From the NCBI GenBank assembly GCA_965242965.1, contig OZ251518.1, forward strand, positions 1,728,001 through 1,792,000: DNA of 64,000 nt, given 5' to 3'. The DNA is from Candidatus Poribacteria bacterium (GTDB lineage: Bacteria > Poribacteria > WGA-4E > WGA-3G). The position numbers were made by a program, and so were the translations under genes. The notes under the pieces are model-generated. The model was not told where the DNA came from. It worked only from the letters and a program-made list of their open reading frames with translations, and made no database searches. Shown here one piece after another: positions 7,004 through 45,593 of the stretch. The first letter of the stretch is position 1; every line of letters starts with the position of its first letter.

Positions 7004-7045
7004 GAAAATATCGCTCCTAGAACAATTTGAACAACTTGCGAACGA

Positions 7046-30656: not shown

Positions 30657-31780
30657 ATTTTTAAGATTTCCTTTAATCTGCGAGCGATGATTTGCACTTC
30701 GCCCGGCATCAGCGTCTGTCCATTAATCAGCACGCCGTTGCTGCCTGCGCCGGCGATGTCAATCGCAGGTTCTCCCGCCGCAAGTTTGTGAAGAACTGCA
30801 TCCCGTGTGATGCCCAACCGATTTTCGTCAAAACGGATTTCCGTGCGCGGCATCGGCTGTCCCGCTTCGGAGGGAAAACTGCGCTGCACCTCAACTCCCG
30901 GAACATCCGCAAATTCTTGCGCGAAGTAGACAACCTGCTTCTCGTAAACTTGCTGGAACGCGTCGGCGTGTTTCAGATACCATTTTACGGCGGCGAGCAA
31001 GCCTACCATCTCCTCCTTACCTACCTTCATCCCTCTGCCGATGAACGGATGCGGGGGGCCGTTGAAGGCGATGGCATCGATAAGCTGTTGCGTCCCGACA
31101 ATTAACCCGCTACTCTGGGGTCCGCACAATCCTTTTCCGCCGCTGAACATCACCAGGTCTGCGCCCATCTCTGTGAACCGCCACAGATTTTCTTTCGGGG
31201 GCAGTTGCGCGGCGGCATCCACAATGACAGGGACACCGTGCCGTTTGGCAATTGCAATGCCTTCAGCGTAAGGCACCCAGAGATGCTCTCGACTCGGATT
31301 CGCGAAGTAGAAGAGCGCGGCGGTTTTGTCGGTAATCGCTGCTTCCAACTCATCGGGAGAGGTGCCGTTTTCGTCGCCGAGCTCCACGAACGTCACACCT
31401 ACCTGCCGCACGGCGAAATCGTATCCGACGCGCCCGTATCTATGAACGATGACTTCGCTTTTCATCGTTGCTAGGTTAGACTCGCCTGAACCCAACGGCA
31501 GTTGTTCGCGTTTGGCGGCATCAAGTCCAGTGATGCACGCCGCCGTGCTGAGCGTCAATGCCGCCGCGGCACCACATGAGACATACGCCGCTTCGTTATG
31601 CGTCAACCTCGCGAGTTCTTCGCCTACCCGTTTTTGGAGCGCGATGATGTCGACAAAGTGCTTCGATGCCTCTATCATCGCCGTGACAACCTCCACGGGC
31701 ATGATGGAACCGCCGAGGCGCGTCAGCGTCGCGTTGCCGTTGATGATGGTGCGAATGCCGAGTTCGTCGTAAACGTTCAT
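30653..31780 (-). CDS. SelA-like PLP-dependent enzyme (DgaE family)
   Basis: INGNATLTRLGGS, VDAAAQ, FSGGK, GRGMKVGKEE. Confidence 0.85.
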   Translation of the reverse strand: MNVYDELGIRTIINGNATLTRLGGSIMPVEVVTAMIEASKHFVDIIALQKRVGEELARLTHNEAAYVSCGAAAALTLSTAACITGLDAAKREQLPLGSGESNLATMKSEVIVHRYGRVGYDFAVRQVGVTFVELGDENGTSPDELEAAITDKTAALFYFANPSREHLWVPYAEGIAIAKRHGVPVIVDAAAQLPPKENLWRFTEMGADLVMFSGGKGLCGPQSSGLIVGTQQLIDAIAFNGPPHPFIGRGMKVGKEEMVGLLAAVKWYLKHADAFQQVYEKQVVYFAQEFADVPGVEVQRSFPSEAGQPMPRTEIRFDENRLGITRDAVLHKLAAGEPAIDIAGAGSNGVLINGQTLMPGEVQIIARRLKEILKI

Positions 31781-31789
31781 AAGTCTCTT

Positions 31790-32232
31790 GTGTGTTTCAT
31801 AAATCGCTCAACGTCGCGGTGCCAGGCTCCCCCGCGCTACGATGAAAAAACGCCGCCCCCTCACCGTAGGGCGAGGGCCCTCGCATGCCACACGCGCGTC
31901 CGAGCGGGTTCCCCTCGCGAGCGTCCGCGCGCGCCAGGCTCTGTAGGTCAGGATCGCCTGATCCTGACCTGTTTGTGATCGGGCGATCACAAACTACAGA
32001 GGAGGGAAACACACATCGTGACGATGGAGATCGCGGGGGACAGGCCCCCGCGCTACGATAAAAAACGCCGCCCCCTCACCGTAGGGCGAGGGCCCTCGCA
32101 TGCCACACGCGCATGCGAGAGGGTTTCCCTCGCCAGTGCTCGCGCACTCCAACGCTCGCGGGGGACAGGCCCCCGCGCTACGATAAAAAACGCTGCCCTC
32201 TCACCGTAGGGCGAGGGCCTGTCCTTCGCCAT
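31790..32232. repeat. REP cluster with left TIR-like end
   Basis: gtgtttcataaatc followed by REP hairpins. Confidence 0.85.
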
Positions 32233-32240
32233 CAACGGGT

Positions 32241-33050
32241 CTAACCGACCTCTTCGCCGTCCAATTTGCCAACGTGCAGGTCGATCTCGTCACGAGACTC
32301 TATTTTATCCACCTTGCCATCTGCCATGTGAAAAATCCGGTCGGAGACATCCAACATCTTGTGATCATGCGTTGCAGTGATGATCGTCACGCCGTTCTCA
32401 GCGTTGAGACGACGCAAGAGCGCGATAATCTCCAGCCCGGTTTTGGTATCCAAATTCCCCGTCGGTTCATCAGCGAGGACAATGGCCGGGTCATTTGCCA
32501 GCGAGCGCGCAATAGCGACGCGCTGCTGTTGTCCACCGGAGAGTTCTAACGGCTTGTGTTGAACCCGGTCTCCGAGGCCAACAAGGGAGAGGAGTTCCAC
32601 CCCGTGCTCTCGGCTATCGTCGGCACTCGTCCCGGCGAAAATCATCGGGAGAGAGACGTTCTCCAACGCCGTCATGACAGGAATCAGGTTGAAGGATTGA
32701 AAGATATAGCCGATTTTGCGGCAGCGAAGCCACGCGAGTTCATACGCATCCAACTGCGCGATGTCCACTTCGTCGATATAGACTCTGCCTTCGGTGGGTT
32801 TGTCTAAACCGCCAATCATGTTGAAAAGCGTTGACTTCCCGGAGCCGGAGGGGCCCATAATCGAGATGTATTCGCCGCGCTGGATCTGGAAATTTACCCC
32901 GCGCAGGGCATCGACGGTAGTCGTGCCCATCTCATAACGCTTGATCAGGTTCCGGACGCGCACGGTATTCTCCTTCGGCAGGATGCGCTGGAGGCGTTCC
33001 GGTGTTTCAGCGAGGTTCGGTTGCATATCGCCATTGCCTTGCATGTTCAT
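32241..33050 (-). CDS. ABC transporter ATP-binding protein (LolD/MacB-type)
   Basis: [31 protein letters not shown]. Confidence 0.95.
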
Positions 33051-33096
33051 TTTTTTGTATTCCTAGCGGTTGTTCCGCTTCATCTAAGCAGAGAGA

Positions 33097-33564
33097 TTAC
33101 CGACGTTTGGGTAAAAATCCGAAACGTTTCTGGGGTTCCAATTCTTGCGTTACGGGCGCGTTCGCGTTGGTGTCCGTCGGGATTGCGAACCCGATGAAAT
33201 TCCGCTTGCCGAGTTGCTGCATGAACGTAAAAAGCGAGGTCTCGGCTTCCTTCCGGGTCAGCTGGTGTTGCTTTTGGATACCCTTGATGATCTGCGCGAT
33301 CGTATGCTTGCCATCGCACATCTGCCAGACAAAGGTGCCCATCGCATCCAGCACGATGACGCGTTTATTCGGGAGCATGAAAAGTTTGCTTGCGAGCCGC
33401 ACCCACAACTTGTCCTTTTGTGGCACGACAAGGGATGCTTCACCTTTGTCGTCCACCTCCCACGTGATGAGTTGATTCCGAACGGGGAACGCCTTCATGA
33501 TGCGCCCCCGCGCCATGTCAGGCCGTTTCTTCAGTTTGAGAGCATATAGCAGTCTATTTAGCAT
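33097..33564 (-). CDS. PqqD-family / RiPP-recognition-element protein
   Basis: LDAMGTFVWQMCDGKHTIAQII...F...L.KR winged-helix pattern. Confidence 0.78.
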   Translation of the reverse strand: MLNRLLYALKLKKRPDMARGRIMKAFPVRNQLITWEVDDKGEASLVVPQKDKLWVRLASKLFMLPNKRVIVLDAMGTFVWQMCDGKHTIAQIIKGIQKQHQLTRKEAETSLFTFMQQLGKRNFIGFAIPTDTNANAPVTQELEPQKRFGFLPKRR

Positions 33565-33603
33565 TTTTTCGTTCCTTAGGTGCGCACTTTGTGGCAAACG
33601 ATG

Positions 33604-34599
33604 TTAATGGCATTGAATACTCGCTGCCACCTGCTTCACCGTGCCCTCGGCATCCACGCCGCCCACAGATTGGATGACGTAGATGCGGTTAGAATGATGG
33701 CACCGCCACAAGTGAAACACCAGCGTTGCGCGTTTTGACACCTTGTCAAGTGCCAGCACCGGCGAGAACGGCACGCTGTCGTAGAGCCGCGTCTGTTGCC
33801 CGATGAGCGTGAGTTGTTCATCATCGGCATCGGGGTGAGAGGTTACCTCAAATCCGTAGCCGCGAATCGCTTTGGCATATTTCGCGCGAAACCACGCCTC
33901 TAACGGGTTCGGTTCTGCCTTAAAATCGCCGAGCATTACCTCAGCCGGTCCGTAGCGTTCAACGCTGAGCCGCTGTTGCTCGGCAAGGATAGGCACACCT
34001 TTCGCCGCCGGGATGACATGCCGCAGCCTTGAACGTTTCACAACAAAGGCGAACAACAAATAGCCGCTCAGCAGTTTCTGCCGTTCCAATTTGTATTCGC
34101 TTGGGACAGCGAGCGCGAGGCCGTAAGCACTCCACAACGTATTCGGCGCATTGTGCTGCGTGGAAATAGAACGGAAGATGCGCAGCACAGTCGGCCGCCA
34201 ATTCTCTTTCAACCGTCCCATGACTTGGACGATGGTAATCCGTTTGCCGGCGTGTAAAATGAGTCCATTGGCGCGGATGCTCCCCTTCCAACTGAACCCG
34301 ATGACGGTGCGCCCTTTAAAGAATTCGGGTTCCTTGATAAGGGTGACATTCCGGCGGAAGGAGAGTTCCTTACCCTTTTTGTAACTCTTGCGGATGAGCT
34401 TGAAGTATTCGTCAAGCGTTGCGTGCAAGTCAGGTTTTTTCTTCCGCGTGTGCGCCCATTTGAGCTCAAGGCGTGGCATTTCCGCATCGTCAAGGCGGAG
34501 ATATCCGGTCTTCTCATCGCCACTGAGCCCGCTCAGTTCCCACTCTTTTGGAATTTCTAGTTGCGTGCCTGCCCATCCGAAAACAGTCCAGTCGTCCAT
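33604..34599 (-). CDS. Hypothetical protein with two related halves (possible PsbP/Mog1-like fold)
   Basis: WTVFGWAGTQLEIPKEWEL..GYLRL resembles WSAYGLALAVPSEYKL..GYLLF. Confidence 0.6.
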   Translation of the reverse strand: MDDWTVFGWAGTQLEIPKEWELSGLSGDEKTGYLRLDDAEMPRLELKWAHTRKKKPDLHATLDEYFKLIRKSYKKGKELSFRRNVTLIKEPEFFKGRTVIGFSWKGSIRANGLILHAGKRITIVQVMGRLKENWRPTVLRIFRSISTQHNAPNTLWSAYGLALAVPSEYKLERQKLLSGYLLFAFVVKRSRLRHVIPAAKGVPILAEQQRLSVERYGPAEVMLGDFKAEPNPLEAWFRAKYAKAIRGYGFEVTSHPDADDEQLTLIGQQTRLYDSVPFSPVLALDKVSKRATLVFHLWRCHHSNRIYVIQSVGGVDAEGTVKQVAASIQCH

Positions 34600-34663
34600 T
34601 TTTCTGTTGTTCCTAGCGGTTGTTTTCGCTTGCCTCGTCTCTTCTTGCAGGCATTAGCTAGAT

Positions 34664-34983
34664 TTATCTGAGGATGTTTCATAAATCCGTTTCAATAGTT
34701 ATCCCCCCTTGGGGCAGGGCGACTACCGAAAGGCATCGGGCCCACCTCTGTAGTTCGGGATCGCCTGATCCCGAACGGGTCAGGATCAGGCGATCCTGAA
34801 CTACAGGGGGGATGCAGTCCGACAGCCAAACGCATGGCGAGGGCCTGTCCCTCGCCCTACGTGAAGGGGCGGCGTTTTTTTCACCGCAGCGCGGGGGCCT
34901 GTCACCGCGACGTTGAGCGATTTATGAAACACCCTCATTTATCCAGATTTATTCCGTAGGCGCGGTTTCAAACCGCGCCTACG
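34664..34983. mobile_element. MITE-like REP cassette plus GTAGGCGCGGTTTCAAACCGCGCCTAC palindrome
   Basis: ttatctgaggatgtttcata ... tatgaaacaccctcatttat. Confidence 0.68.
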
Positions 34984-35002
34984 GAATTTCTATATCCGCC
35001 TG

Positions 35003-36991
35003 CTAAAACGGTTTGACAATCACGGCTTTGGAGACGAGCGCGATTGCCACCGTGCCCATGCCGATTAAGCCGACACCGCAGGCGAATCCCGCCGCCAGCA
35101 CCGGGTTGAACATATACCACCGACGCATACCGAACCGTTTGATCATGTAGAACCGGCCGATAACCGCACCGAGCAGACGCGCTACCATGCTACCCGGGTC
35201 AGCCAGGGCACCACCTGCGATGCCGTAAAACCACATCGAGGGGAGTTTGAACACCCAGAGCAACCCATAAAGCGCGAGCATTGAGGTAAAGCCGGCGGAG
35301 ACATAATCGCCGCGAATTGCCTGAAGCATTTCGCTATTCCCATCCCTAAGCGACGTTTTCCACAGACATTCGTTCGTGGCGTTGATGGGCCACATCATCT
35401 GGGCAAACGGATATTGCGCGCTCGGAATTGGCGCGATCTTCCAGATAAAATGCATCACGACAATGCCGCTAACGAGCAAAATCGGCATAATCAGCAACGT
35501 GCCGGCGAGGTTTGACGTGAATGTCGTGCCGGTAAGTTCCAGCACACGCCAGCCTTGCGTGCCTCTACCGTAGTCTTCGTCGGGAAGCGGCGCGAACCAA
35601 ATGTCCACCTCTTCATATCGGCTCAAAATAAAGGTAATCTCATGCAGATACGGGATTTCAAAAAGGTCGCGGCCCAGCACACCGAACGTTCGTGCCGTGA
35701 TATACGAATTAATCGGTGTATACAGGAACGCATACCCGAGCAGGAAACTGAGTGGGAAGTTCGGCACCATCCAGTGGATAAGCCAGACGAAGCCTCCCAT
35801 GCCGATGAGCCACATCGCGCCCATGAGCCAGATCGGGAAATCACCGCGATTCGGCGGCGTTGCGAATGAACCGCGTTCGCCAGCCTTTTTGCGCGCTTTC
35901 TGCATCTTAAACAGCATCGGAATAGAGGCCGCCATCCCCACAACTGCGAAGCTGAACGATTTGCCCATCCCGAAACTCATCTCAAAGTCAAGGCTGTTGA
36001 ACAAATTAGTTGCCCGCACGTCAAGTCCCGGATTCCATTGATACAAGATTTCAGCCGGGTAAAGAATCTGCGGTTTTAAGATAAATTGCGATACCATCGC
36101 CGCGATGAACTCCGACATCATAATCGGGAACGGCATGACGAACCCGATCAGCATCTGTCCGAAGTCCGTGCGGAGCGCGAACACGCCGGTCGGCGCGAAC
36201 CCTTCGATACTCTGCGTGAAATCTATCCACGGAATCTTCAGAATCTCAATCGGCTGGCTCATCATCACGCCGGAAAGAGCCGGAACGCCGATATAGAGGA
36301 AACCCCATATCAGGCCCGCCATGGAGCCGATGGAAAAGACGCGCCACCGCCAGGTCTCCTCCTTACCGGTAGTTTCCGCGAGTGCCGTCGCGCCTTGCGC
36401 GCTAATCGGTGCCATCGGATACGGAAGCCGTTCCAGGTCTGCCGTGAGCCGGAACAAGATATACTGGCCACTCACAAACCGCAGCGTGCCGAGTAGTTTG
36501 CCAGCGAGGTAGATTGCAATCGGCAGGAACCAGTCAGGGTGCAAGAGGGTCCGCGTCAGCACCGCGGCAGAATCGCCGGCTGGCACAATCCATGCCGGAA
36601 TCTTATCGGCGATTTCATAAGAAGCCGCCTGCGGCGTATTCACGAAGTAGGCATACCAGATGAAGTTGCGGTATTGCATCCCGCTTCCGACAGCAGCACC
36701 CGTGAGGCCGAGGAGCATATAGAGCTCCTGCCGCCGGGCTGTCGTAAAGGAACGCCGCGCGAGTTCAGTAAACAGAATCACTGCTACCCACGGTGCCGCT
36801 TCCGCGCCGGATTGGCCGGATACATAACTGAGATAGATGGAGCCGGGCATCATCAGCAGCCCTACAAAGAGCGCGCCGATGAAGACTTTGACGGTGAGAC
36901 CGGACTCAAAGGTGCGGATGCCGCCTTCGATGTCGTATCGTTTCGCCCAAGCTTGCCATTCATCTGCTTGTGATACTCTTTCTCTCGCCAA
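35003..36991 (-). CDS. Polytopic membrane protein, OPT/YSL-like putative peptide transporter
   Basis: About 15-16 TM helices; QELY, D.ERLPYPMAP, PIPSAQYP motifs; TTG start. Confidence 0.7.
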   Translation of the reverse strand: MARERVSQADEWQAWAKRYDIEGGIRTFESGLTVKVFIGALFVGLLMMPGSIYLSYVSGQSGAEAAPWVAVILFTELARRSFTTARRQELYMLLGLTGAAVGSGMQYRNFIWYAYFVNTPQAASYEIADKIPAWIVPAGDSAAVLTRTLLHPDWFLPIAIYLAGKLLGTLRFVSGQYILFRLTADLERLPYPMAPISAQGATALAETTGKEETWRWRVFSIGSMAGLIWGFLYIGVPALSGVMMSQPIEILKIPWIDFTQSIEGFAPTGVFALRTDFGQMLIGFVMPFPIMMSEFIAAMVSQFILKPQILYPAEILYQWNPGLDVRATNLFNSLDFEMSFGMGKSFSFAVVGMAASIPMLFKMQKARKKAGERGSFATPPNRGDFPIWLMGAMWLIGMGGFVWLIHWMVPNFPLSFLLGYAFLYTPINSYITARTFGVLGRDLFEIPYLHEITFILSRYEEVDIWFAPLPDEDYGRGTQGWRVLELTGTTFTSNLAGTLLIMPILLVSGIVVMHFIWKIAPIPSAQYPFAQMMWPINATNECLWKTSLRDGNSEMLQAIRGDYVSAGFTSMLALYGLLWVFKLPSMWFYGIAGGALADPGSMVARLLGAVIGRFYMIKRFGMRRWYMFNPVLAAGFACGVGLIGMGTVAIALVSKAVIVKPF

Positions 36992-37069
36992 ATTATGTTT
37001 CTCCTATTTTTTATGTCGCAAGGCGTTGGAACAAATTATCAGACGCTTTGCGAACCGGGGGACCGCGCC

Positions 37070-37276
37070 TTACTCCCCCGACGTACCCCCGTCTCCGGAA
37101 TCGTGTTCTTCGTCTCCAGAATCTTGAAACTCTTCCCAAAAATGGGCACAGAAGATGCCGACTGTCAGCACGAGCGCGGACAACATCTGCCATTGCCAAC
37201 GGCCCTCAAGCGCGAAAATGCTGAACAGCCATAAAGCTGTGCCGAGAATAATGATAAGACTCGCTATTTTTTCCAT
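37070..37276 (-). CDS. Small two-TM membrane protein with acidic tail
   Basis: GAGGA SD upstream; two hydrophobic stretches; lies inside the operon. Confidence 0.6.
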   Translation of the reverse strand: MEKIASLIIILGTALWLFSIFALEGRWQWQMLSALVLTVGIFCAHFWEEFQDSGDEEHDSGDGGTSGE

Positions 37277-37324
37277 GCTAATTCCTCTTTTTCAGTGCGC
37301 GCCGCCCCATCGGCGAAAGCACCC

Positions 37325-37458
37325 CGTAGGCGAGACCTCCTGGTCTCGATGCATCGGTTTCGGGACTCGCCATGCGTTTGGCTGGCAGACCGCATCACCC
37401 CTGTAGATCAGGATCGCCTGATCCTGATCTGTTCGAGATCGGGCGATCTCGAACTACA
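37325..37458. repeat. REP cluster
   Basis: GTAGGCGAGACC..GGTCTCG and GATCAGGATCGCCTGATCCTGATC hairpins. Confidence 0.8.
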
Positions 37459-37583
37459 AAGGTGGGTCCGATACTCATCGCATTGCCGCGTGAGAATCCT
37501 ATCGCTGCACTCCCGAACTACAAAGGTGGGCCCAATGCCTCTTCCGCCGAGCCTGAGCGATAGGATAAACGACATGCGGCCGA

Positions 37584-40500
37584 CTAACCCGCTGACGTTA
37601 CCGCCGGTTCTAACCGCGGTGCCTCGCCTGCTTCCTCTTCGTCCGGGACAGCATTTTCGGTTCTGCCGCGTTCGTGGAACTCGGCACGGATATCAACGCT
37701 GAATGTCCGCCAGATAAGGAGCTGCTTCCGCAGCAGATTGAGGAACCGTCGGTTCACACGCTTCCACGACGCAATCTCGCCACTTTCGCGATGCACCTCT
37801 AACGTGATTTTGTAGAGGTCCTCCTCCTCGCCGCCGACTGGCGAAGTGACAAACTTGATGGACTGGCTCACGCCTAAGTCGTAAGGTGCCAGCCATACCA
37901 TCATGCCGATCTGGTAAGACTCCTCGTCTGCTTCGCTGAATGCCACCTGGTCTGTGTAGAAATCGCTCGCCGATTCGTCTGCGTGCGCCTCAAAATAGTC
38001 GCGCATGAAGACGTTCAAGCCGAGTGCTTCCTCCTCCAGCACGGTGAACGGCAGGTTGAAATGCCACACGTCGCCTTCCGGTTCTGGCAGTTTCCACTTC
38101 CGTTCGATATCCGGCACCGCCATCCGTGATGCCTTCAGCGCGGGATACAGCGTGCTGAGCAACACGACTACCATGACGACAATCGTGGCGACGACGGTGG
38201 ACATTGACGAGTAGTTCAACGTCAACCCCGCGAGCCAACCGAAGTTCACCAAGGTCGTCGCAATAGCCTGTCCCATCAGATACCCTAGCACTGCGCCGAC
38301 GATGGCGTAGACGCACGCCTCCGCAAGGAACAGGAACGCGATATGCACCGGCGCAAGCCCGACAGAACTGTAAATGCTTATCTCGCGCACGCGCTCGTAA
38401 ACGGCACCGAGCATCGTGTTTAACACAATCAGCGCGGCGATGAGAATCGGCACAAACAGATTGCCCATCCCACTGAAACTCGTCATCCCGATACTGCTGT
38501 AGAGATAGGTATCCTTGTCGCGCCCGACAAAGAAGTCCAACGCGATCCGGTTCATCAGCGGTGCCATAATCAGGTCCAACTTGTCAATCGCACCGAGTAA
38601 CTGCGGATCATCGGCTCGCGGCTCCATATTCACAGCCACGCTTCGGAGAGTGCCGCCTTGATTCATGACTACCTCGTAAGGCAGAATAGCGACGCTGTCC
38701 GGGGTGAGATGCAGATATTTCTGCAGTTCGCCTTCCAGTGTTTCGTCACCGGTTGCCCCGCGGCTCCGTTGCTGTTGCATGAGTTGGTAATCAACCGGGG
38801 TGAGTTCCTCACCATCGTTATCGGTGAGGTCCTTGAAGCCGATGCCTAGCACCCCGACGACGGTGAAGTCTGCACCGTAAACCGAGACGGTGGCTTTGCC
38901 CATATCACTTTCAGTGATTTTGAGCAGTTCCGCCATCCCTTTCGGCAGCACGATGGCATAGGGCCATTCTGTCGGCCAGGCATCCGAATCGCCCGGCTCA
39001 AACCACTTGCCGTATTGGAGGTATCTGTCAATGCCGCTGACACCGGGTTCCTGTTCATTCATACCGACGAGCATGTTCGCGGCGAAGGTTAACGCCTCAC
39101 CGGTGAGGGGATGCGTCGGCGGCACCGGGTCTGACGGATTTTGGGTGCGTGTCAATTGGACAAAGGACTGATCGCCTGTCCCAGACGACTGATACCACGC
39201 CCGCGGTGCGACAACGTTCTGCACGGTGAGAACGGGTTCTTCGTCAACCTTCTCAACAAAGCCGTCCTGCTCCAATGAAGCGAGGGCTGCCGCTGTATCA
39301 ATCGGCTGCTGCCCCTGTTTCGCCAACAGTTCGCTTTTGCGTTGAAGCAACCGTTCCAGCGCGTCCAACGTAATCTGCGTTTTCTGCATATCGTTTAGCA
39401 CAGAAGTAAGCACAGGTTCTTCCAAGGGCCGCCAGTACTGGTCCCGGATGAGGAGCCCCGTGTAGCGCGGCGTGACTTGCGGAAGGCTGGTGCGGTTCGG
39501 ATGCATGAACGTCCGCACCGATGTAAACGAGATGACGGTGAACGTCAGAATGACAAGCGTGCAACAGGTGAGGATAGTGCGTCCTTTCCGTTTCCGCATG
39601 TTGGAAATGCCGAGGCTAAACGCCGCCGCGCTAGCACTCAGCCTGCCGACATCTGCCTTGTAGACATTGCTGCCCTCTTGTCGGATTTTCTCCAATTGCT
39701 CCTCGAACTTCCGCACGATAATGCTGATGACGATTACCGTGAGCGCGAGCACAACGAACGCAATCAGGATAATCACGGGTGTCGTCGTGATTTGGAACGC
39801 GGGATGCACCTGACTTAAGAAGAAGAAGACAAGCAGGAAGATACCGAACGCACCGAGGATCTGCTTGTGGATGTTCGGAAAACCGAAGATGAGCCGTTCC
39901 ATGAAGTAGGCGAACGGCATCAGCAGCGCGAGGTAGAACATCACACCGTTGACGACATCATTTCCTGTCTGCTTGACATCCGGATAGGCGCGCGATTCAT
40001 ACCCCCACGCCGCACGCGCCAATTTCAAAGCCTGCTGATAATCGTTTTGCAGGAGTTCGGTTTCGGCTCTATCCAGATATTCGTTGGCAAATTGGTGCAG
40101 TTTATCCAGTCTGTCGCTGGAGATACCGAACCGTTTATAGAGACGGGAACGGTTTTCATCAAGCCACCACATATCACGGACAACGACGTAAGGCGTGAGG
40201 CGGATTTGCCCGTTCTCCCGAACGACGAACCCCTCACCCGTGTAAAGCGTCGGGTTTTTCATGCCGCTCTTTGTCGCTTTGATGAGGAGCAATCGCTTCC
40301 CGATTTGCCCGTATGCCATTCCCACTTTGATGCGGGTTTCCGGTTCGCTGTAAACGAGCGCGATAGGTTCAGCGGCGGAAACGCCTTCCTGTTGCCACGG
40401 TTTAGACATCCCGAACTTTTCAGGCGGACTATCCGTGAGCGCATCGTAAACCTCCAATTCGCGCAAAGTTCGCAGATACCGCTGATCTACCAGATCATAG

Positions 40501-43500
40501 ATAGTTGTTGATACACACGGGAAGGTGACAACGCGACAGCCGCGTCGGCGCGTATTGATAGGTATCTTATTCGGAAGCAACTTCGCGCCGTAATTCCCTA
40601 AATCGGGCGCGTAGACGATGTCGCCAGAATCCGCATCCAAAATGTATGCCTCCACCTCTTGCACACCGCCGAGTCTGCGCGTGGCTCTGCCTTCCATGGC
40701 GAGCCCCGCCATTTCAAAGTTGCCTTTGTTATCTCCCATGACAAACAGATCGCCGCGCACCCCCATCATCGTCTTATTCTTGCGGCGCAGCGTCAAAATA
40801 GGATAGGGGACAGGCTTATTCGGCAGTGCCGATTCGCGCGCGTCAAACTCAACGACATCGCCGAAGAGGTTGCAATAAAAATTGCCGACGCGGGCCGCCG
40901 TGGGCATCTCCTCATCTCGCAGCGCTTGGAGGAGAAGCGATGCCAGCGTCTGTGCCTGTTGGTGAAGGTTGCCGCCCTCACGCAAATCCACTCTATCAAT
41001 GGTATCCAACGGGGTATCAGTTAAGACGCGCGCGTCCTCAATCGTGGCGAACGCGATGCCGGTTTTTCCGACAAGCGTGGCGACTTCACTGTCAAACGCA
41101 ATCTTGCCCGGAATGTAGGTTTTCCACGTTTTCCCGCCGCTAGCAGAAATGGCGTTGACGAAGTTCGACGCGCCGCCGAGCCCCGCGATGCCGATAAGGG
41201 TTTTGATGTCATCAATCTCCTCCTCGGTGAAAGTATCCGGGTCTTCGTGACGGAGCCGCAACATCGCGTCCAGCTGCTCGCGGGTGCGGATATTATTCTT
41301 GCGGTTTTTCTTCGCCGTGCGGACATCGTTTCGGATGAACCGTTCAACTTCCTTCCGGACGTAGTCCATATCCTTCAGCATATCCTCAGAGGGTTCACCG
41401 CGGTTTCGCCACTGCTCAAACTGCATTTTCATCAGCCGACTTACGCCGCTGAGCCCTGTCAGTTTGCCGTAATGAGAGCTGAGCAGCGTCTCCAGCGTTT
41501 TGCCTTCCAGCGCGGCTTTATCGGAGATGCCGCTTGCGACACCCCACTGCCGCGCCATGACTGCCTGACGGATCTGGTCATCGCTCCACTGCCACAACTT
41601 CCGCACACGCACGCCGAAATCGGCATCCTCGGCGTAAGAAGCAAGTTTATTACCGATGCTGGCAAATTCGCGGCGTAACACAAACTCCGGCTGCTGATCA
41701 TAGAACCAGCCTTTATTAAATACGCCGAATTGATTGGACTGTGAAGACAAGTCGATGCTGACATAGAGGGAGGTATAGTAGCGGTTAAAAAGGTCCTGCA
41801 GCGCAATCGCCGAATCAATTTGCGCAAGTTTTCGGCTATACTCGTCCGCGTCAATCCGTATCATCTTTTCAACACGGCTTTGGATGTTGCGGAAACGTGC
41901 GTTCCGGAGAGTCAATAGGTTATCGCGCAGTAGCACCTTCGTCTCCTCATCAAGATCGGTGTTTAAGGTAGGGAGCCGCTCGATGAGGTTATCAAGCGCG
42001 ACGATATCCGACGCTGCACGCCGTTTGACGATTGCCAAGAGTTTTTCCTCTGTCATGTGCGCGGCAACGATGGAACGCATCCGAAGGCCCTCTGCCATCT
42101 CATCGGCGGAAAGGTAATTTTTGAGGATGAGTTGTTCCTCGTCCAGATACCCCCTGTCCAACGTGGCGTGCGTCGCCAGCAGGTGTTGGATGCGGGTTCG
42201 TTCCAAGCGCGCGTTCCGCAGCGCGATTTCGAAGATACTCTGCTTATCCTTGAGCAAATCAGCGATGAGGATGGCAGAATCGCTCGTGTCATCGGATTCG
42301 GTTAACCGCTGTTTGAGTTGCGCATCAATGGTGCTCAGCCGTTCAAGTCCTGCTGCCGATAGATACTGCCCATCGTAAACCACGCTGGTGGCGATTTGCG
42401 CCATGCCGATATCCTTAAGTTTTCGGATGCTCGTCTTGATTTCGTTTTCAACCTGCTCGCTGTCCCTGATTTGGGACAAGACCTTTTGCAGGAGTTCCTT
42501 TTCCCGCTGAATGGCTGTTCCGCGCGATGCGTTTGCGTCGCCGAGGACTTTCCGTGCATCTTTGACGCGGTTGAGTGCGTGAAGATCGAGATGCCGGTCC
42601 AGAATTTTTTCCGGTGTCCACATCAGTGCGAATTTCCGCTTGTCGCTCATCTCCCAGTCGGCAAGCGTCTGGTTCAGCATCTCAATTTCTGCCGTCAATT
42701 CTGGCGGCAAGTCAGCCGGCACAGGGATATCCCATCCATCTTCCCGTTCTTCAGGGAGAAGATAAGCGTCATTCGGGTGCGCGCTGTATCGGGATTGCGT
42801 GGCGTTTTCAACGCTGCTGATGAGTTTATCAACTGCCCAAGTATCCAAGCGTGCTATCGGCAGTGCCAACGTTTCAATGAGTTCTCGTTGCGCGACGCGG
42901 CTCGTATCTAACGCCACCGTGCGCACTTGTGCTAAGCGTTGGACGATGTCGCGGAGGAAGTGCGTCGTCTGTAAAGCCTCCTTCTTGGAACGCGCGAGGT
43001 TGGCCAACAGCAGACTTTTCTCCTCATCGGTGAACCCTTGCTTCTCGCGTTTTCTATTCCGGTCCGCCTGTTTTTTCTGGCGTTCAGAGAAATCGCGCTG
43101 TTTCGTATTCAAGTCTTCGATTTGCGAGCGCGTTTCTGCGAGGCCGTCTAGGGTTATCGCGAGGGAATCCAGGTCAGATTTGATAGCGTGGATACCGAAA
43201 AAGAAGTCGCCGGGCAAATCAACAAGCACGCTTCTGTCAATAGAAAGCAGCAATCGCCTGCCGAGTTCCTCGAATTCAATAATATCGGTAGAGAGCCCGC
43301 GGCGGAGTCCGTGCATCGTCGGCGTGCCGGGGGAATCGGTGTCTGAACCGACGATGTCCTGTCCGATACCTTCCATAAAGGCGCGCATGCCGGCGAGCCC
43401 CTGGAAATGTGCATCCACAGCAACAAAAAGGACAGAGCGGCCCGGACGGTATTCCGGTTGACTGAAGAGGCGTGCGAGTTCCATCAACACAGCGATACCG

Positions 43501-44915
43501 CACGTTGGATCTGCCCCGGGAGCCAGTGCCGGCACGACAGACATTGAATCGTAATAAGCAGTCAACACGACGAGTTCGTCGCGGAGCGTCGGATCACCGC
43601 CTTCCAAAAAGCCGCGGATATTCTGTCCGATGCCGCGCTCCCACGTCATCTTTCCTCTCATACGAACGTTCACATCGATACCGGTATCTGTCTCTAACAT
43701 TTCCCTTAACGCCGCGCCGTCCGCCTTGGATATCCAGAAGCGTGGGATGTTTGCGGGGACGGTGCCGAATTTATTCTCCGCCTCGCCACGAATCGTGGTT
43801 TCCGGTTCAACGAAGATAACGGCAGTGCCGCCGAGCATCGCGGCGTTGATGTAGCGGGTGCTAGAATTGAAATCGAGCAGGACTATCGCGCCTTTCGGAA
43901 TGAAGATGTGTGCTTCACTCGCGGCGACAAATTCGCCGGATTCGTCAATTTCGCCGTCCCTATTGTTATCAATGCCATCTGTTTCATCGCCGGGGATTTC
44001 ATCGGTTGCGCCATCGGCATCATTGTCAATACCGTCGGTTGCCCATCCGCGGATTTCGGATAAGAGCGGAATCTCGCCGTATTCGTCCACGGTGCCATCT
44101 TCGTCATTGTCAATCCCATCAGATGCCTTTTGGAGGTGTCCGTTGAGCACATCGTCGGTGATGCTTGCTTCGGTGATGCGGTTGCGCCGGGCAAGGGAGG
44201 TGAGGGTATCGCCATCCTGCAGTTCATACCAATAGCCGCCGATGTTCGTGCCGTTGAAGTCGGCGAGCTCCGCATCGTCGCCGTAAAGGAGCGGACCGGA
44301 CAACCCACCTGTCGGAATAAAGACGGTGCTGCCTTCAACAACAGGGGTTGCGATGAATTTGTTCTTTTCATGCGCGCGGATAATATCGGCGGAGACCTGG
44401 TAGCTATCAGCGATTTCCTGAAGCGTTTCGCCGGGGAGAACGGTGTGTTTAATGCCATCTGCCAGCAGCGAGGTGCGCACGAGGTTGGGCCAAAACGGTG
44501 TCAGTTTAAAGGTGTGCAGCACGGTCCCCTCAGCGGAAAGCACCTCAATGACACTACCCCCCCGGGCGTTCGGGAAAGTCCCGTGGTCGACTGGGACAGT
44601 GACGGTGAACTCACGACTCTCTACGTTTTGCAAACCGATTTCAACGAACCGGTCGAAGATGTATTTGCTGCCGCTCGCGGCTTGCGGGTAGCCGGTGACG
44701 CGACTCTCTAGGCTGGATAGCCGCGCGATGTCCTTCCGGAGGTTGCCGATGGACAAATCGTCTCGGATTTGAATAGCCGCGGTTTTCATCCCTACGGCTG
44801 TCTCTGCCTCTTCAACAATTTGCTGTGCATTGACACGTTCAAACGGCGTGGCAACGAAGCAAAGGCCGAGGCAGAATAGCAGAAGCAGTATCTGCACGTT
44901 ATAGCTGCGTTTCAT
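37584..44915 (-). CDS. Giant multidomain ABC permease: signal peptide, 2 LysM, PA-like region, DGIDND repeats, degenerate M28 peptidase-like domain, coiled-coil inserts, TM bundle, FtsX/MacB-type C-terminus
   Basis: SRVTGYP, HTVLPGETLQEIA, YELQDGDTLTSLA, AYYDS...APGA, SNMRKRKGRT, VYERVREISIYSSVGL, YPALKASR. Confidence 0.85.
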   Translation of the reverse strand: MKRSYNVQILLLLFCLGLCFVATPFERVNAQQIVEEAETAVGMKTAAIQIRDDLSIGNLRKDIARLSSLESRVTGYPQAASGSKYIFDRFVEIGLQNVESREFTVTVPVDHGTFPNARGGSVIEVLSAEGTVLHTFKLTPFWPNLVRTSLLADGIKHTVLPGETLQEIADSYQVSADIIRAHEKNKFIATPVVEGSTVFIPTGGLSGPLLYGDDAELADFNGTNIGGYWYELQDGDTLTSLARRNRITEASITDDVLNGHLQKASDGIDNDEDGTVDEYGEIPLLSEIRGWATDGIDNDADGATDEIPGDETDGIDNNRDGEIDESGEFVAASEAHIFIPKGAIVLLDFNSSTRYINAAMLGGTAVIFVEPETTIRGEAENKFGTVPANIPRFWISKADGAALREMLETDTGIDVNVRMRGKMTWERGIGQNIRGFLEGGDPTLRDELVVLTAYYDSMSVVPALAPGADPTCGIAVLMELARLFSQPEYRPGRSVLFVAVDAHFQGLAGMRAFMEGIGQDIVGSDTDSPGTPTMHGLRRGLSTDIIEFEELGRRLLLSIDRSVLVDLPGDFFFGIHAIKSDLDSLAITLDGLAETRSQIEDLNTKQRDFSERQKKQADRNRKREKQGFTDEEKSLLLANLARSKKEALQTTHFLRDIVQRLAQVRTVALDTSRVAQRELIETLALPIARLDTWAVDKLISSVENATQSRYSAHPNDAYLLPEEREDGWDIPVPADLPPELTAEIEMLNQTLADWEMSDKRKFALMWTPEKILDRHLDLHALNRVKDARKVLGDANASRGTAIQREKELLQKVLSQIRDSEQVENEIKTSIRKLKDIGMAQIATSVVYDGQYLSAAGLERLSTIDAQLKQRLTESDDTSDSAILIADLLKDKQSIFEIALRNARLERTRIQHLLATHATLDRGYLDEEQLILKNYLSADEMAEGLRMRSIVAAHMTEEKLLAIVKRRAASDIVALDNLIERLPTLNTDLDEETKVLLRDNLLTLRNARFRNIQSRVEKMIRIDADEYSRKLAQIDSAIALQDLFNRYYTSLYVSIDLSSQSNQFGVFNKGWFYDQQPEFVLRREFASIGNKLASYAEDADFGVRVRKLWQWSDDQIRQAVMARQWGVASGISDKAALEGKTLETLLSSHYGKLTGLSGVSRLMKMQFEQWRNRGEPSEDMLKDMDYVRKEVERFIRNDVRTAKKNRKNNIRTREQLDAMLRLRHEDPDTFTEEEIDDIKTLIGIAGLGGASNFVNAISASGGKTWKTYIPGKIAFDSEVATLVGKTGIAFATIEDARVLTDTPLDTIDRVDLREGGNLHQQAQTLASLLLQALRDEEMPTAARVGNFYCNLFGDVVEFDARESALPNKPVPYPILTLRRKNKTMMGVRGDLFVMGDNKGNFEMAGLAMEGRATRRLGGVQEVEAYILDADSGDIVYAPDLGNYGAKLLPNKIPINTRRRGCRVVTFPCVSTTIYDLVDQRYLRTLRELEVYDALTDSPPEKFGMSKPWQQEGVSAAEPIALVYSEPETRIKVGMAYGQIGKRLLLIKATKSGMKNPTLYTGEGFVVRENGQIRLTPYVVVRDMWWLDENRSRLYKRFGISSDRLDKLHQFANEYLDRAETELLQNDYQQALKLARAAWGYESRAYPDVKQTGNDVVNGVMFYLALLMPFAYFMERLIFGFPNIHKQILGAFGIFLLVFFFLSQVHPAFQITTTPVIILIAFVVLALTVIVISIIVRKFEEQLEKIRQEGSNVYKADVGRLSASAAAFSLGISNMRKRKGRTILTCCTLVILTFTVISFTSVRTFMHPNRTSLPQVTPRYTGLLIRDQYWRPLEEPVLTSVLNDMQKTQITLDALERLLQRKSELLAKQGQQPIDTAAALASLEQDGFVEKVDEEPVLTVQNVVAPRAWYQSSGTGDQSFVQLTRTQNPSDPVPPTHPLTGEALTFAANMLVGMNEQEPGVSGIDRYLQYGKWFEPGDSDAWPTEWPYAIVLPKGMAELLKITESDMGKATVSVYGADFTVVGVLGIGFKDLTDNDGEELTPVDYQLMQQQRSRGATGDETLEGELQKYLHLTPDSVAILPYEVVMNQGGTLRSVAVNMEPRADDPQLLGAIDKLDLIMAPLMNRIALDFFVGRDKDTYLYSSIGMTSFSGMGNLFVPILIAALIVLNTMLGAVYERVREISIYSSVGLAPVHIAFLFLAEACVYAIVGAVLGYLMGQAIATTLVNFGWLAGLTLNYSSMSTVVATIVVMVVVLLSTLYPALKASRMAVPDIERKWKLPEPEGDVWHFNLPFTVLEEEALGLNVFMRDYFEAHADESASDFYTDQVAFSEADEESYQIGMMVWLAPYDLGVSQSIKFVTSPVGGEEEDLYKITLEVHRESGEIASWKRVNRRFLNLLRKQLLIWRTFSVDIRAEFHERGRTENAVPDEEEAGEAPRLEPAVTSAG

Positions 44916-45047
44916 AAGGTTCTCCTTTCAGCACGACAGGTGCCATCTTTTTCAGGCGACGCAAAACCGCCGCGTTTCCCCTATTTCTGGTGGCACAATG
45001 TTTGTATTTCGGGTTTTTATTTCGGCGTTTTCGGTGCATTTAAACGT

Positions 45048-45076
45048 ATTATAGCAAAATTGCAACTTTTTGTCAA
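45048..45076 (-). promoter_or_regulatory. Perfect-consensus sigma70 promoter for the giant permease operon
   Basis: TTGACA-17 bp-TATAAT with extended TG on the minus strand. Confidence 0.8.
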
Positions 45077-45090
45077 CATTAAATTTGCAT

Positions 45091-45557
45091 TTAATCGAGA
45101 ATGTTTCATAAATTCCCGTAGGAGAGACTTCCTAGTCTTGATGCAATAGGACGGTGCGCCTACCGGGGCCGCGGCGGCAGAAGGTCTCCCCTTCATCGTA
45201 GGGCGAGGGCCTGTCCCTCGCCGTGCGTTTGGCTGTCAGACCTCCTCACCTCTGTAGGTCAGGATCGCCTGATCCTGACCTGTTTGTGATCAGGCGATCA
45301 CAAACTACAGAGGTGGAAACACACATCGTGACGATGGAGATCGCGGGGGACAGGCCCCCGCGCTACGGTGAAAAAAAACGCCACCCTGTCACCGCAGGGC
45401 GAGGGCCTGTCCCTCGCCATCGTCCGCGCAATCTAACGCTCGCGGGGGCCTGTCCCGCGCTACGGGAACATCGAGACCAGGAGGTCTCTCCTACCGGAAA
45501 TCGAGCCCCGAGGTCTCTCCTACTGAACACATCGAAATATGAAACACCCTCATTTAA
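45091..45557. mobile_element. MITE-like REP cassette
   Basis: ttaatcgagaatgtttcata ... tatgaaacaccctcatttaa. Confidence 0.72.
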
Positions 45558-45593
45558 TCAATCAGGAAGGCCGCAAATGCATCATTTTCCTTG

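Follow-up and report, generated by a model that had tools for sequence, protein, structure and literature searches.

A gene cluster of Poribacteria encoding a type VII ABC-like machine and its possible coupling to OPT-fold permeases

We consider here a cluster of six genes in a Candidatus Poribacteria bacterium. It lies in a 64 kb stretch of the chromosome (C1, positions 1728001-1792000), which we will call the window; positions of features are given in window coordinates unless C1 or the chromosome is named. The largest gene encodes a giant protein with a permease module of the type found in MacB and FtsX, and across a broad sample of genomes this giant keeps the company of two families of permeases related to OPT. 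Our preferred explanation is that the six genes account for the greater part of a conserved inner-membrane machine of several subunits and of MacB/LolCDE/FtsEX type, that is, a type VII ATP-binding cassette (ABC) mechanotransducer that would serve OPT-fold permeases in the uptake of oligomeric nutrients. We would give this explanation a rough probability of 0.4. The promoter and the genes, in the order in which they are read, are as follows (aa, amino acids).

45048-45076, minus strand: promoter TTGACA-17-TATAAT, sigma-70-type, with an extended -10 TG, ~130 nt upstream of g1
37584-44915, minus strand: g1, giant permease, 2443 aa
37070-37276, minus strand: g2, membrane protein, 68 aa
35003-36991, minus strand: g3, OPT-like permease, 662 aa, TTG start
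33604-34599, minus strand: g4, predicted tandem PsbP-fold protein, 331 aa
33097-33597, minus strand: g5, PqqD protein, 166 aa, TTG start (147 aa from an internal ATG)
32241-33050, minus strand: g6, LolD/MacB-type ATPase, 269 aa

A first-pass annotation had reported six co-oriented genes behind a perfect TTGACA-17-TATAAT promoter. This is borne out, with all six open reading frames (ORFs) on the minus strand at the positions above. Every one of its domain calls stood up as well, namely LysM, PA/M28-like, FtsX, OPT-like, PqqD, tandem PsbP fold and LolD-type ATPase. Its description of the cluster as a six-gene machine has to be revised, since in other phyla a small FtsX gene and a gene for a DUF6785/DUF6784 permease join the cluster, and in this genome both are encoded elsewhere.

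The clustering of the genes is far beyond chance. Of 41 related genomes, 40 have g3. The 75 Poribacteria loci that we fetched around g3 share the gene order giant, g2, g3, g4, PqqD, ATPase, and profile hidden Markov models place the giant, g3, g4, PqqD and ATPase genes on one strand in 64/64 Poribacteria loci, these being the loci with at least 7.6 kb of sequence upstream and at least 5 kb downstream. The genes flanking the cluster are conserved within the family only. For other phyla, 80 metagenome loci were fetched around distant relatives of g3 (37-45% identity). In 47 of the 52 loci with at least 3.5 kb upstream, the gene immediately before g3 encodes a giant of ~1,500 aa; 43 of these were found by script, and four had been excluded only by overlapping stop-to-stop coordinates. 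Five metagenome loci (L086, L087, L109, L112, L130) have no giant within 9-10 kb. Downstream of g3, the 42 loci with at least 3.5 kb on that side carry g4 (13 loci), PqqD (14), a small FtsX gene (11) and an ATPase (11). By source names, relatives of the giant come from Poribacteria, Armatimonadota, Abditibacteriales, Omnitrophica, Latescibacteria, Gemmatimonadota and Planctomycetes.

The phyletic distribution was followed in 251 genomes, mostly one per family across Bacteria, with cut-offs of E<=1e-20 for the g3 profile, E<=1e-10 for PF20581 (DUF6785) and E<=1e-20 for a profile of the middle and transmembrane (TM) part of the giant. The giant, g3 and PF20581 are found in exactly the same eight genomes and in none of the other 243. 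The gene g4 is found in four of those eight and nowhere else in the sample. One of the eight is a Poribacterium and two are of one family, which leaves six or seven independent lineages. Because the pattern is identical, we regard the giant, g3 and DUF6785 as a core trio and g4 with PqqD as an accessory module. Co-occurrence across phyla had been proposed as a check on the cluster; it is seen both for the giant-g3 pair in the metagenome loci of other phyla and for the trio in the genome sample.

Some of the metagenome loci carry further genes. A gene for a PorV/UPF0164-like outer-membrane protein stands before the giant in L096, L097 and L102, and in L125 and L126 a fusion of DUF2092 (LolA-like) with an AhpC/TSA redoxin is encoded between the giant and g3. 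These genes may be lineage-specific accessories.

The ATPase g6 is of LolD/MacB/FtsE type (ABC_tran in Pfam, E 5.3e-35). Its Walker A (GPSGSGKST), signature (LSGGQQQR), Walker B (LADEPT) and H-loop motifs are intact, it has a conserved C-terminal tail, and it is 63-70% identical to orthologues of other phyla. The nearest NCBIfam model is LolD, at 235.5 bits against a cut-off of 307.75; DevA, DarD, YbbA, MacB and FtsE follow. The Lol permease equivalogs also score below their cut-offs (LolC 34.6 against 473 bits, lolCE 19.6 against 362).

In other phyla an FtsX protein of ~209 aa (PF02687, E down to 1.2e-21) is encoded between PqqD and the ATPase. This genome has an orthologue of 225 aa (43-48% identity) at C1:3046609-3047283, 1.28 Mb from the operon, and the gene after it encodes an ATPase that is 62% identical to g6 and ends in the same kind of tail. 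The small FtsX is single-copy in 40/41 related genomes, at 65-100% identity, and is in the cluster in 0/75 Poribacteria loci. By analogy with LolC/LolE, the giant and the small FtsX may form a heterodimeric permease. The genome as a whole has 13 FtsX-domain matches, including a 300-aa ORF of FtsX size and two adjacent ORFs of 438 and 443 aa. A membrane-fusion gene of MacA/HlyD type was found neither among the six genes and their four flanking genes nor among the recurrent families of the 80 other loci, and the cluster has no TolC-type or other outer-membrane channel gene.

The region around the small FtsX (L193, C1:3040000-3054000) holds the two genes as ORFs 6610-7287 and 7188-8048, the latter being the second ATPase. 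Before them stand alaS and an AIR-carboxylase-like gene, and after them a gene for an FRG/TPR protein.

The third member of the trio is a membrane protein of ~650 aa with DUF6785 and DUF6784 domains. In the loci of other phyla it matches PF20581 with E down to 3.4e-155 and OPT weakly, and its gene, a neighbour of the giant, is found in 25 of the 80. In this genome there are 22 scattered paralogues, all stand-alone and 630-700 aa long (for example at chromosome positions 2371807-2373282 and 1901774-1903261). PF20581 is found in 0/14 well-known control genomes. When 19 of the 22 neighbourhoods (113 proteins) were searched with Pfam, no constant neighbour of the paralogues emerged. Families that do recur near them are GFO/IDH/MocA, PhyH, SDR, sulfatase and GHMP-kinase, and also restriction and toxin-antitoxin genes.

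A family of ~1,050-aa proteins is encoded adjacent to, or at most a few genes away from, four of the 22 paralogues (C1 1903294-1906428, 773531-776743, 2699772-2702915 and ~2489000-2492000). Three of the four were scanned and are Type ISP restriction-modification enzymes. The pairs may be duplicated two-gene blocks, or the two genes may share an insertion context.

The permease g3 is polytopic and is the most conserved membrane part of the system (72-100% identity within the order, 40-45% between phyla). Its relation to OPT is remote. A Pfam search with g3 itself gives no match even at E<=1, neither to PF03169 nor to DUF6785/DUF6784. PF03169 is matched by three of 11 g3 relatives (best E 7.2e-08), the orthologue G219 from an unrelated phylum reaches 19.7 bits with it against a cut-off of 25.8, and precomputed PF03169 assignments are attached to 5 of 120 g3 homologues among the matches listed. 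Aligned by hhalign with the DUF6785 family, g3 is weakly similar over its last 150 residues (probability 52%, E 1.5e-04). The g3 family profile has no match among solved structures at E<=1. Hence we regard g3 as a probable, distant member of the OPT superfamily. Fused forms of g3 in proteins of 1160-3310 aa were not found at E<=1e-10, which is weak evidence. The small g2, a membrane protein with an acidic tail, has a tblastn match in 74/75 Poribacteria loci and in 0/80 loci of other phyla, and by these matches is specific to Poribacteria.

Some genomes have tandem or multiple copies of g3, with two adjacent in G032, G038 and L066. Others have more than one giant, two in G025 and three to four matches in G306. 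One genome can therefore carry several versions of the system.

We now turn to the giant. From its N-terminus, g1 has a signal/anchor helix (aa 7-25), a periplasmic PA/M28-like head with lineage-specific inserts, and a beta-sandwich and helical stalk. Three extra TM helices come after the stalk, then a MacB/FtsX-type module of four TM helices with a periplasmic domain, and finally a cytoplasmic C-terminal domain. Hydropathy agrees with this order: an N-terminal helix, three helices within 1654-1733, and four in the MacB/FtsX arrangement. The parts map to the window as follows.

43926-44447, minus strand: g1 aa 157-330, LysM (core 157-180), a second LysM-like stretch and three DGIDNDxDG repeats (aa 266, 294, 313)
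43356-43898, minus strand: g1 aa 340-520, PA domain and first half of the M28-like domain, with a non-canonical metal site
41796-43355, minus strand: g1 aa 521-1040, coiled-coil-like charged insertion (60% E/K/R/Q/L/D/A), absent in other phyla, no Pfam match
39966-41795, minus strand: g1 aa 1041-1650, conserved blocks with a second insert confined to Poribacteria (1121-1240); beta-sandwiches resembling transthyretin/CnaB and the long helices of the stalk
39696-39965, minus strand: g1 aa 1651-1740, three extra TM helices (1654-1672, 1686-1704, 1715-1733) before the MacB module
38106-39695, minus strand: g1 aa 1741-2270, MacB/FtsX module with cytoplasmic linker, TM1, periplasmic domain of ~330 aa and TM2-4
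37587-38105, minus strand: g1 aa 2271-2443, conserved cytoplasmic C-terminal domain, occupancy 0.93-0.98

The permease assignment is the firmest of the Pfam matches (FtsX PF02687, E 1.9e-12, 47.7 bits against a cut-off of 25.5, aa 2155-2265). MacB_PCD (PF12704) is not reported on g1 itself; three homologues have it (E 3.5e-10, 9.5e-07 and 3.6e-04) in regions aligned with aa ~1800-2130. The extra TM helices, with conservation of 0.53-0.72, are among the best conserved parts of the protein. In the head, Peptidase_M28 is matched at E 6.8e-09 over profile positions 1-78 of 193 only, and the PA domain at E 0.00038, below the Pfam cut-off. LysM (PF01476) reaches 36.6 bits against a cut-off of 20.9 when aa 140-340 are scanned alone, over profile positions 1-24 of 43.

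How old are these parts? An alignment of 49 homologues, 43 of them from outside Poribacteria, gives a clear division. Present in all phyla aligned are aa 40-160, 340-520, 1041-1100 and 1241-2410. Found in Poribacteria only are aa 161-200 and 241-320, which together hold LysM and the three DGIDNDxDG repeats, and aa 521-1040 and 1121-1240, both charged, coiled-coil-like and with no Pfam match. At aa 161-200 and 241-320, occupancy among the 43 other homologues is 0.00-0.01. By their position, the conserved blocks 1041-1100 and 1241-1320 are probably the rest of the M28-like domain. One homologue of another phylum has an F5/8 type C domain in its head, in place of LysM and the other inserts. The first-pass annotation had proposed capture of peptidoglycan fragments. 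As a function of the family this loses its basis, for LysM, the DGIDNDxDG repeats and the ~650 aa of coiled coil are confined to Poribacteria, and the other-phylum homologue carries F5/8 type C.

An AlphaFold2 model of aa 1241-1800, with a predicted local distance difference test score (pLDDT) of 76.3, consists of beta-sandwiches, long helices and TM helices. Fold searches with this region returned only generic matches, transthyretin/CnaB/pilin-like on the one hand and helical on the other. All are weak: Foldseek finds pilins at E ~1e-04 with template-modelling scores below 0.26, and VIA gives Z values of at most 9.8. NOMO of the BOS complex (Z 7.6) and GPI-transamidase subunit S (Z 9.0) are among the matches, at the level of a common arrangement.

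The same annotation had also suggested processing by the M28 domain. In a phmmer search against solved structures, the domain finds the Vibrio leucyl aminopeptidase and nicalin (nicalin at E 5.8e-04). Four residues of the aminopeptidase could be compared, namely His97, Asp117, Glu151 and Glu152, with their numbering checked against chain positions in the alignment; Asp179 and His256 are located outside profile positions 1-78 matched in Pfam. Their counterparts in g1 are listed below.

His97 of Vibrio aminopeptidase: Tyr454 of g1
Asp117 of Vibrio aminopeptidase: Asp of GADPTCG in g1, kept
Glu151 of Vibrio aminopeptidase: His in g1
Glu152 of Vibrio aminopeptidase: Phe in g1

The best structure match, 2anp (E 8e-05), has His at 151 where Glu151 would be expected; we take this entry to be the E151H mutant of the aminopeptidase. 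In the giant family His at the Glu151 position is invariant (48/48 aligned homologues), and the Glu152 position is variable (F, H, G, Y, C, T). With Tyr, His and Phe at the positions of His97, Glu151 and Glu152, the canonical di-zinc peptidase site is absent. As far as can be judged from the alignment, the head lacks canonical metal and catalytic residues and looks inactive. The invariant His leaves room for a different, single-metal, chemistry. Processing by M28 is thus not what these residues suggest, and the nearest solved sequences include the non-catalytic nicalin.

An arm of this kind suggests that the machine might remodel the envelope in the manner of FtsEX. ATP would drive a coiled-coil/LysM arm of g1, a built-in counterpart of EnvC, PcsB or RipC, which would bring an activity that modifies the wall into place or switch it on; fragments set free in this way would enter through the OPT-fold proteins. 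The FtsX-type module and the FtsE/LolD-type ATPase fit this well. In Poribacteria the arm has LysM and ~650 aa of coiled coil, which resembles the coiled-coil partners of FtsEX, and the inactive-looking, enzyme-like head recalls the LytM domain of EnvC, which is catalytically dead. Conservation in the core genome would also be expected. But LysM and the coiled coils are absent in other phyla and so cannot define the function of the family, and no hydrolase gene is conserved in the cluster. The 22-fold expansion of a partner permease would be hard to account for, and among the 13 FtsX-domain matches the 300-aa ORF leaves space for a separate, normal FtsEX. Under these circumstances we consider envelope remodelling unlikely.

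We return to the type VII ABC mechanotransducer and to how it might work with OPT-fold permeases. In MacB, LolCDE and FtsEX, the ATPase drives movement of FtsX-type helices, and the movement is relayed to periplasmic domains. By the same principle, giant g1 would be one FtsX-type half-permease and the small 225-aa FtsX the other. ATP would be hydrolysed by g6 and, in this genome, also by the paralogue encoded next to the small FtsX. The permease helices would pass their movement on to the periplasmic arm of g1, built of the PA/M28-like head, the beta-sandwiches and the helical stalk; in Poribacteria the arm would have LysM, Ca-type repeats and long coiled coils in addition. The partners of the motor would be the invariant g3 and the DUF6785/DUF6784 permeases, presumably in physical contact with it. 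The arm might hold the substrate or hand it over, and passage across the membrane would be by way of the OPT-fold proteins. Peptides, glycopeptides and glycan fragments are candidate cargoes.

Why uptake rather than export? The obligate tie to two OPT-fold families and the 22-fold expansion of DUF6785 favour it. So do the carbohydrate-binding inserts of the head (LysM here, F5/8 type C elsewhere), taken with the lack of membrane-fusion and outer-membrane channel genes. To our knowledge all characterised OPT transporters are importers. We also count in favour of uptake the neighbours of catabolic type (GFO/IDH/MocA, PhyH, SDR, sulfatase) near several of the DUF6785 paralogues. The strong constraint on g3 within the order and on g6 between phyla is a further point for the explanation as a whole.

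A number of points weigh against this explanation. We know of no type VII ABC system that drives import, and of no OPT protein that needs an ABC partner. High conservation and the single-copy state of g1, g3 and g6 would fit a housekeeping function in the envelope equally well. The link between DUF6785 and catabolic genes is loose, the neighbouring families being abundant in the genome and the link carrying no statistic. A PqqD/RRE protein (RRE, RiPP recognition element; RiPP, ribosomally synthesised and post-translationally modified peptide) has no obvious role in uptake. The presence of g4 in only four of the eight core genomes means that the cytoplasmic pair g4 and g5 is not essential to the core mechanism. 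The eight positive genomes represent fewer than eight independent lineages. Finally, the only complex prediction gave no verdict, and contact from part to part is putative. The analysis establishes the parts with their folds and families, the degenerate M28 site, the conservation of the operon and the co-occurrence; physical coupling, the heterodimer, the direction of transport and the substrate are points that we infer.

If uptake is correct, a more elaborate version can be imagined. The giant, the small FtsX, the ATPases and g3 might constitute a shared module for energising and capture, which would serve 22 interchangeable DUF6785/DUF6784 permeases in the way that the module of ECF transporters serves exchangeable S components, with the PqqD/PsbP-fold pair gating the motor from the cytoplasm. 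This version is doubtful, and we offer it mainly as a speculation. If true, it would couple the mechanical work of an ABC system to a secondary-transporter fold.

The cytoplasmic pair deserves separate consideration. The AlphaFold2 model of g4 has a mean pLDDT of 87.8, and its best Foldseek match is PsbP (4rth, E 5.5e-06). With VIA-align, aa 2-148 superpose on CyanoP 2xb3 (Z 15.3, root-mean-square deviation (rmsd) 2.6, 138 aligned) and aa 151-331 on Mog1 1jhs (Z 11.5, rmsd 4.6, 147 aligned). The two-domain immunity proteins Tli4/TplEi of the type VI secretion system match across both halves. At the level of the model, this confirms g4 as a tandem PsbP/Mog1 fold. No sequence family is found for it in Pfam, NCBIfam or the ESM Atlas, where its clusters are unnamed and come from Armatimonadota and Poribacteria. 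The next gene product, g5, is a PqqD protein (PF05402, E 9.1e-11, 42.4 bits against 23.4, aa 74-135) with a conserved N-terminal extension. It is below the NCBIfam equivalog cut-offs for ScmD (37.3 against 100 bits), PqqD (31.7 against 46) and lasso B1 (27.1 against 80). As g4, g5 and g6 have no hydrophobic segment, and g4 neither TM helix nor signal peptide, they are taken to be cytoplasmic. Complex prediction of PqqD with the ATPase, the g1 C-terminal domain and g4 gave a score of 0.00 in a run made without controls. Present in only part of the family range, g4 and g5 would seem to be accessory adaptors or regulators.

A zinc site is suggested by the pattern CxxC...C...CH, which most homologues of g4 share. 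In the lineage of the window the CxxC pair is lost (HAG--KR), and the last Cys and the terminal CH are kept.

The fold of g4 brings another possibility to mind, an extractor or assembly machine resembling LolCDE. In this case a molecule that is hydrophobic or carries a lipid anchor (a lipoprotein, a lipid-linked glycan or a small membrane protein) would be drawn out of the inner membrane by the MacB-type module and passed along the arm. The OPT-fold proteins would be flippases or insertion partners, and the PsbP-fold protein a cytoplasmic chaperone like DUF1795/Eag. LolC for g1 and LolD for g6 are the closest NCBIfam matches, three highly conserved extra TM helices adjoin the MacB module, and a membrane-fusion protein is lacking, as in Lol. 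The fold of g4 is shared with SciW (Z 9.7), DcrB (Z 11.1) and LpqN (Z 10.3), all of which, we presume, bind hydrophobic clients or act in envelope biogenesis. On the other side, all Lol scores are far under the equivalog cut-offs, and the adjacent 438- and 443-aa FtsX-domain ORFs elsewhere in the genome look like a putative ordinary LolC/E or MacB pair. We know of no OPT family member that flips lipids, and the expansion of paralogues argues for many substrates. On balance an extractor is quite unlikely.

Could g5 instead point to peptide export? PqqD/RRE would bind a leader peptide and deliver an unmodified or remotely modified peptide to an ABC/OPT complex for secretion. MacB-type pumps do export peptides, such as enterotoxin STII and darobactin, and the DarD model is among the best matches of g6. 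Moreover g5 is a true member of the PqqD family, whose nearest NCBIfam models are RiPP chaperones (ScmD, PqqD, lasso B1), all below their cut-offs. Nevertheless, neither in the 75 Poribacteria loci nor in the 80 others does the cluster or its surroundings hold a conserved gene for a precursor or a maturase. The earlier statement that no RiPP maturase is adjacent holds, both for the four flanking genes and for related loci. The only small ORF, g2, is restricted to Poribacteria; g4, which is paired with g5, is in only half of the core genomes; and of the 42 metagenome loci only 13 have g4, and only 14 PqqD, next to the giant-g3 pair. Nor is there a membrane-fusion or outer-membrane channel gene. 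Peptide export is, in our view, improbable.

The conserved C-terminal domain of g1 is difficult to classify. It has no Pfam match and no match to a CARF model other than CARF_m8. A profile of it finds only ZntB among solved structures (E 1.9), hhalign shows it to be unrelated to g4 (probability 0.7%), and a search of the ESM Atlas returned nothing above 0.89 with a consistent family. It is here that a role in anti-phage defence or signalling has to be discussed, with an effector of CARF_m8 type controlled by a CARF domain that senses cyclic nucleotides. The suggestion comes from PADLOC: g1 aa 1985-2413 match the model PDLC01991, 'CARF_m8--CARF_LolE_TM', at E 3.9e-50, with homologues up to 2e-65. 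That match, however, runs through the permease module. The tail alone matches PDLC01991 in four of 34 homologues (best E 0.0012) and no other CARF model. CRISPR or CBASS genes are not conserved nearby, and the system is core-genome, single-copy and highly conserved, unlike defence islands. Such an effector is therefore extremely improbable. A CARF assignment of g1 was itself rejected, there being no CARF match outside the permease module. The label CARF_m8 reportedly comes from the CARF census of Makarova et al. 2020.

Expression of the cluster may start from the promoter listed above. It is the only 12/12 TTGACA/TATAAT site of the whole window (45076-45048, minus strand), and an AGGAG ribosome-binding site can be read 8 nt ahead of the g1 start. 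In related loci a promoter site of at least 10/12 lies within 350 nt upstream of the giant gene in 47 of 53, a count made without a shuffle control. The chromosome has 194 perfect TTGACA-N16-18-TATAAT sites, against ~2 expected for uniform composition, and 148 of them have a 17-nt spacer. They have A/T-rich upstream tracts, often a G before the -10 box, and diverse spacers; hence they are not copies of one repeat. Consensus promoters are a genuine trait of this Poribacteria chromosome. For a genome of 55-57% GC, such strict use of the consensus is unusual.

The gaps and the end of the operon have the following features.

37277-37583, no strand: g1-g2 gap, 307 bp, with a REP-like palindromic repeat copy (repeat B at 37411)
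34600-35002, no strand: g3-g4 gap, 403 bp, with REP-like repeats and a palindrome with a 17-bp stem
32068-32089, minus strand: terminator-like hairpin and T-run downstream of g6, inside a repeat element
31853-31874: second copy of the terminator-like hairpin with T-run, inside a repeat element

In the 403-bp gap between g3 and g4 there is no T-tract terminator on the coding (minus) strand, and in related genomes the gap is as short as ~23 bp. Since both long gaps are filled with repeats and the g3-g4 gap is short in relatives, they look like insertions of repeats into an operon. An Rfam scan of 31700-45700 (E<=1) gave only chance microRNA-like matches on the palindromic repeats and no leader riboswitch.

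REP-like palindromic repeats between genes fall into two families and occur in very large numbers across the genome. The first is represented by a 15-mer found ~2,447 times on the chromosome and 45 times in the window (at most one mismatch), the second by a 13-mer found ~1,000 times in the genome and 22 times in the window. Examples in the window are at 31951, 32213, 34758-34839, 37411 and 45205-45401. The operon is flanked by genes for a pyridoxal phosphate enzyme, a metallo-beta-lactamase-fold protein, a zinc-dependent alcohol dehydrogenase and a PhyH protein. The window also has two further very long ORFs, at 21484-27528 (plus strand, 2014 aa) and at 48788-52396 (minus strand, 1202 aa).

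A search of the literature revealed no characterised pathway with this combination of genes, in agreement with the first-pass annotation; the CARF census of Makarova et al. 2020 was outside the search. We also found no description of DUF6785, DUF6784, PF20581, PF20580 or CARF_m8, nor of a pairing of PqqD with a tandem PsbP/Mog1-fold protein. The present analysis adds that the giant, g3 and DUF6785 have exactly the same distribution in the genome sample, that the small FtsX has been relocated together with a duplicated ATPase, and that DUF6785 is expanded 22-fold in this genome. It adds as well the map of Poribacteria-specific inserts in g1, the structural support for a tandem PsbP fold, and the cross-reference to PADLOC/CARF_m8.

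Besides Poribacteria, the lineages that have retained the system are, to judge from source names, Armatimonadota, Latescibacterota, Gemmatimonadota, Planctomycetota and Omnitrophota. Efflux, the release of lipoproteins and the regulation of wall hydrolases are the established roles of type VII ABC systems; OPT proteins are known as self-sufficient importers. If the two do form an obligate partnership, membrane transport would be energised or gated in a new manner, and DUF6785 and DUF6784, at present Pfam families of unknown function, would acquire one. With its 22 copies and its tie to a motor of the core genome, the permease family may be central to the feeding of sponge symbionts on polymers derived from the host. 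There would be natural examples, too, of a peptidase fold used as a non-catalytic mechanical head and of an RRE outside peptide biosynthesis.

It remains to compare the system with those already known. The PADLOC entries CARF_m8--CARF_LolE_TM (PDLC01991 and PDLC01990) strongly match the extra helices, the MacB module and part of the tail of g1, so that relatives of the permease already figure in a census of CARF-like proteins; no CARF domain could be demonstrated in g1. Among PqqD/RRE systems, g5 passes the Pfam threshold for PqqD and comes directly after its partner gene, with which it is translationally coupled in several loci. It differs in having neither a precursor nor a maturase beside it, be it radical SAM, YcaO, lasso or another, and in that the partner would be a tandem PsbP/Mog1-fold protein.

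The head resembles nicalin, the transferrin receptor and enzymes of the glutamate carboxypeptidase II (GCPII) type in having a PA domain inserted before an M28-like domain. As in GCPII, the bridging Asp is kept in a GxDPxxG context. Unlike these proteins of PA/M28 fold, pseudo-peptidases included, the domain of g1 is broken by large lineage-specific inserts and fused to a permease.

With OPT/Yellow-Stripe-like transporters (PF03169, TC 2.A.67) the relatives of g3 and DUF6785 share weak to moderate matches, a length of ~650 aa and a polytopic build. Known OPT proteins work alone as proton-coupled importers, whereas g3 adjoins an ABC motor and is itself under every Pfam threshold. ECF transporters offer an analogy only: here one set of motor genes stands with 22 scattered stand-alone permease paralogues, and elsewhere a single permease stands beside the motor. 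There is no homology to ECF systems. The ATPase is of another subclass, the permease of another fold, EcfT is absent, and sharing of the motor is hypothetical.

There are, further, the type VII ABC systems, MacAB-TolC, LolCDE and FtsEX with EnvC, PcsB or RipC. Common to all is a four-helix FtsX permease with a periplasmic domain between TM1 and TM2, together with an ATPase of LolD/MacB/FtsE type; two different permease halves are probable here, as in LolC/LolE, and the work is presumably done outside the cytoplasm. The differences are considerable. The half-permease of g1 has ~1650 periplasmic residues (~900 in other phyla) as well as three extra TM helices ahead of it and a conserved cytoplasmic domain behind it, a membrane-fusion protein is lacking, and scores are far below the equivalog cut-offs. 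The two OPT-fold families are obligate companions of the present system, and PqqD and PsbP-fold proteins are frequent ones; for the known systems these features have not been described. It may be seen as a variation on the type VII ABC theme, with an unexplained and possibly new coupling to OPT-fold permeases.

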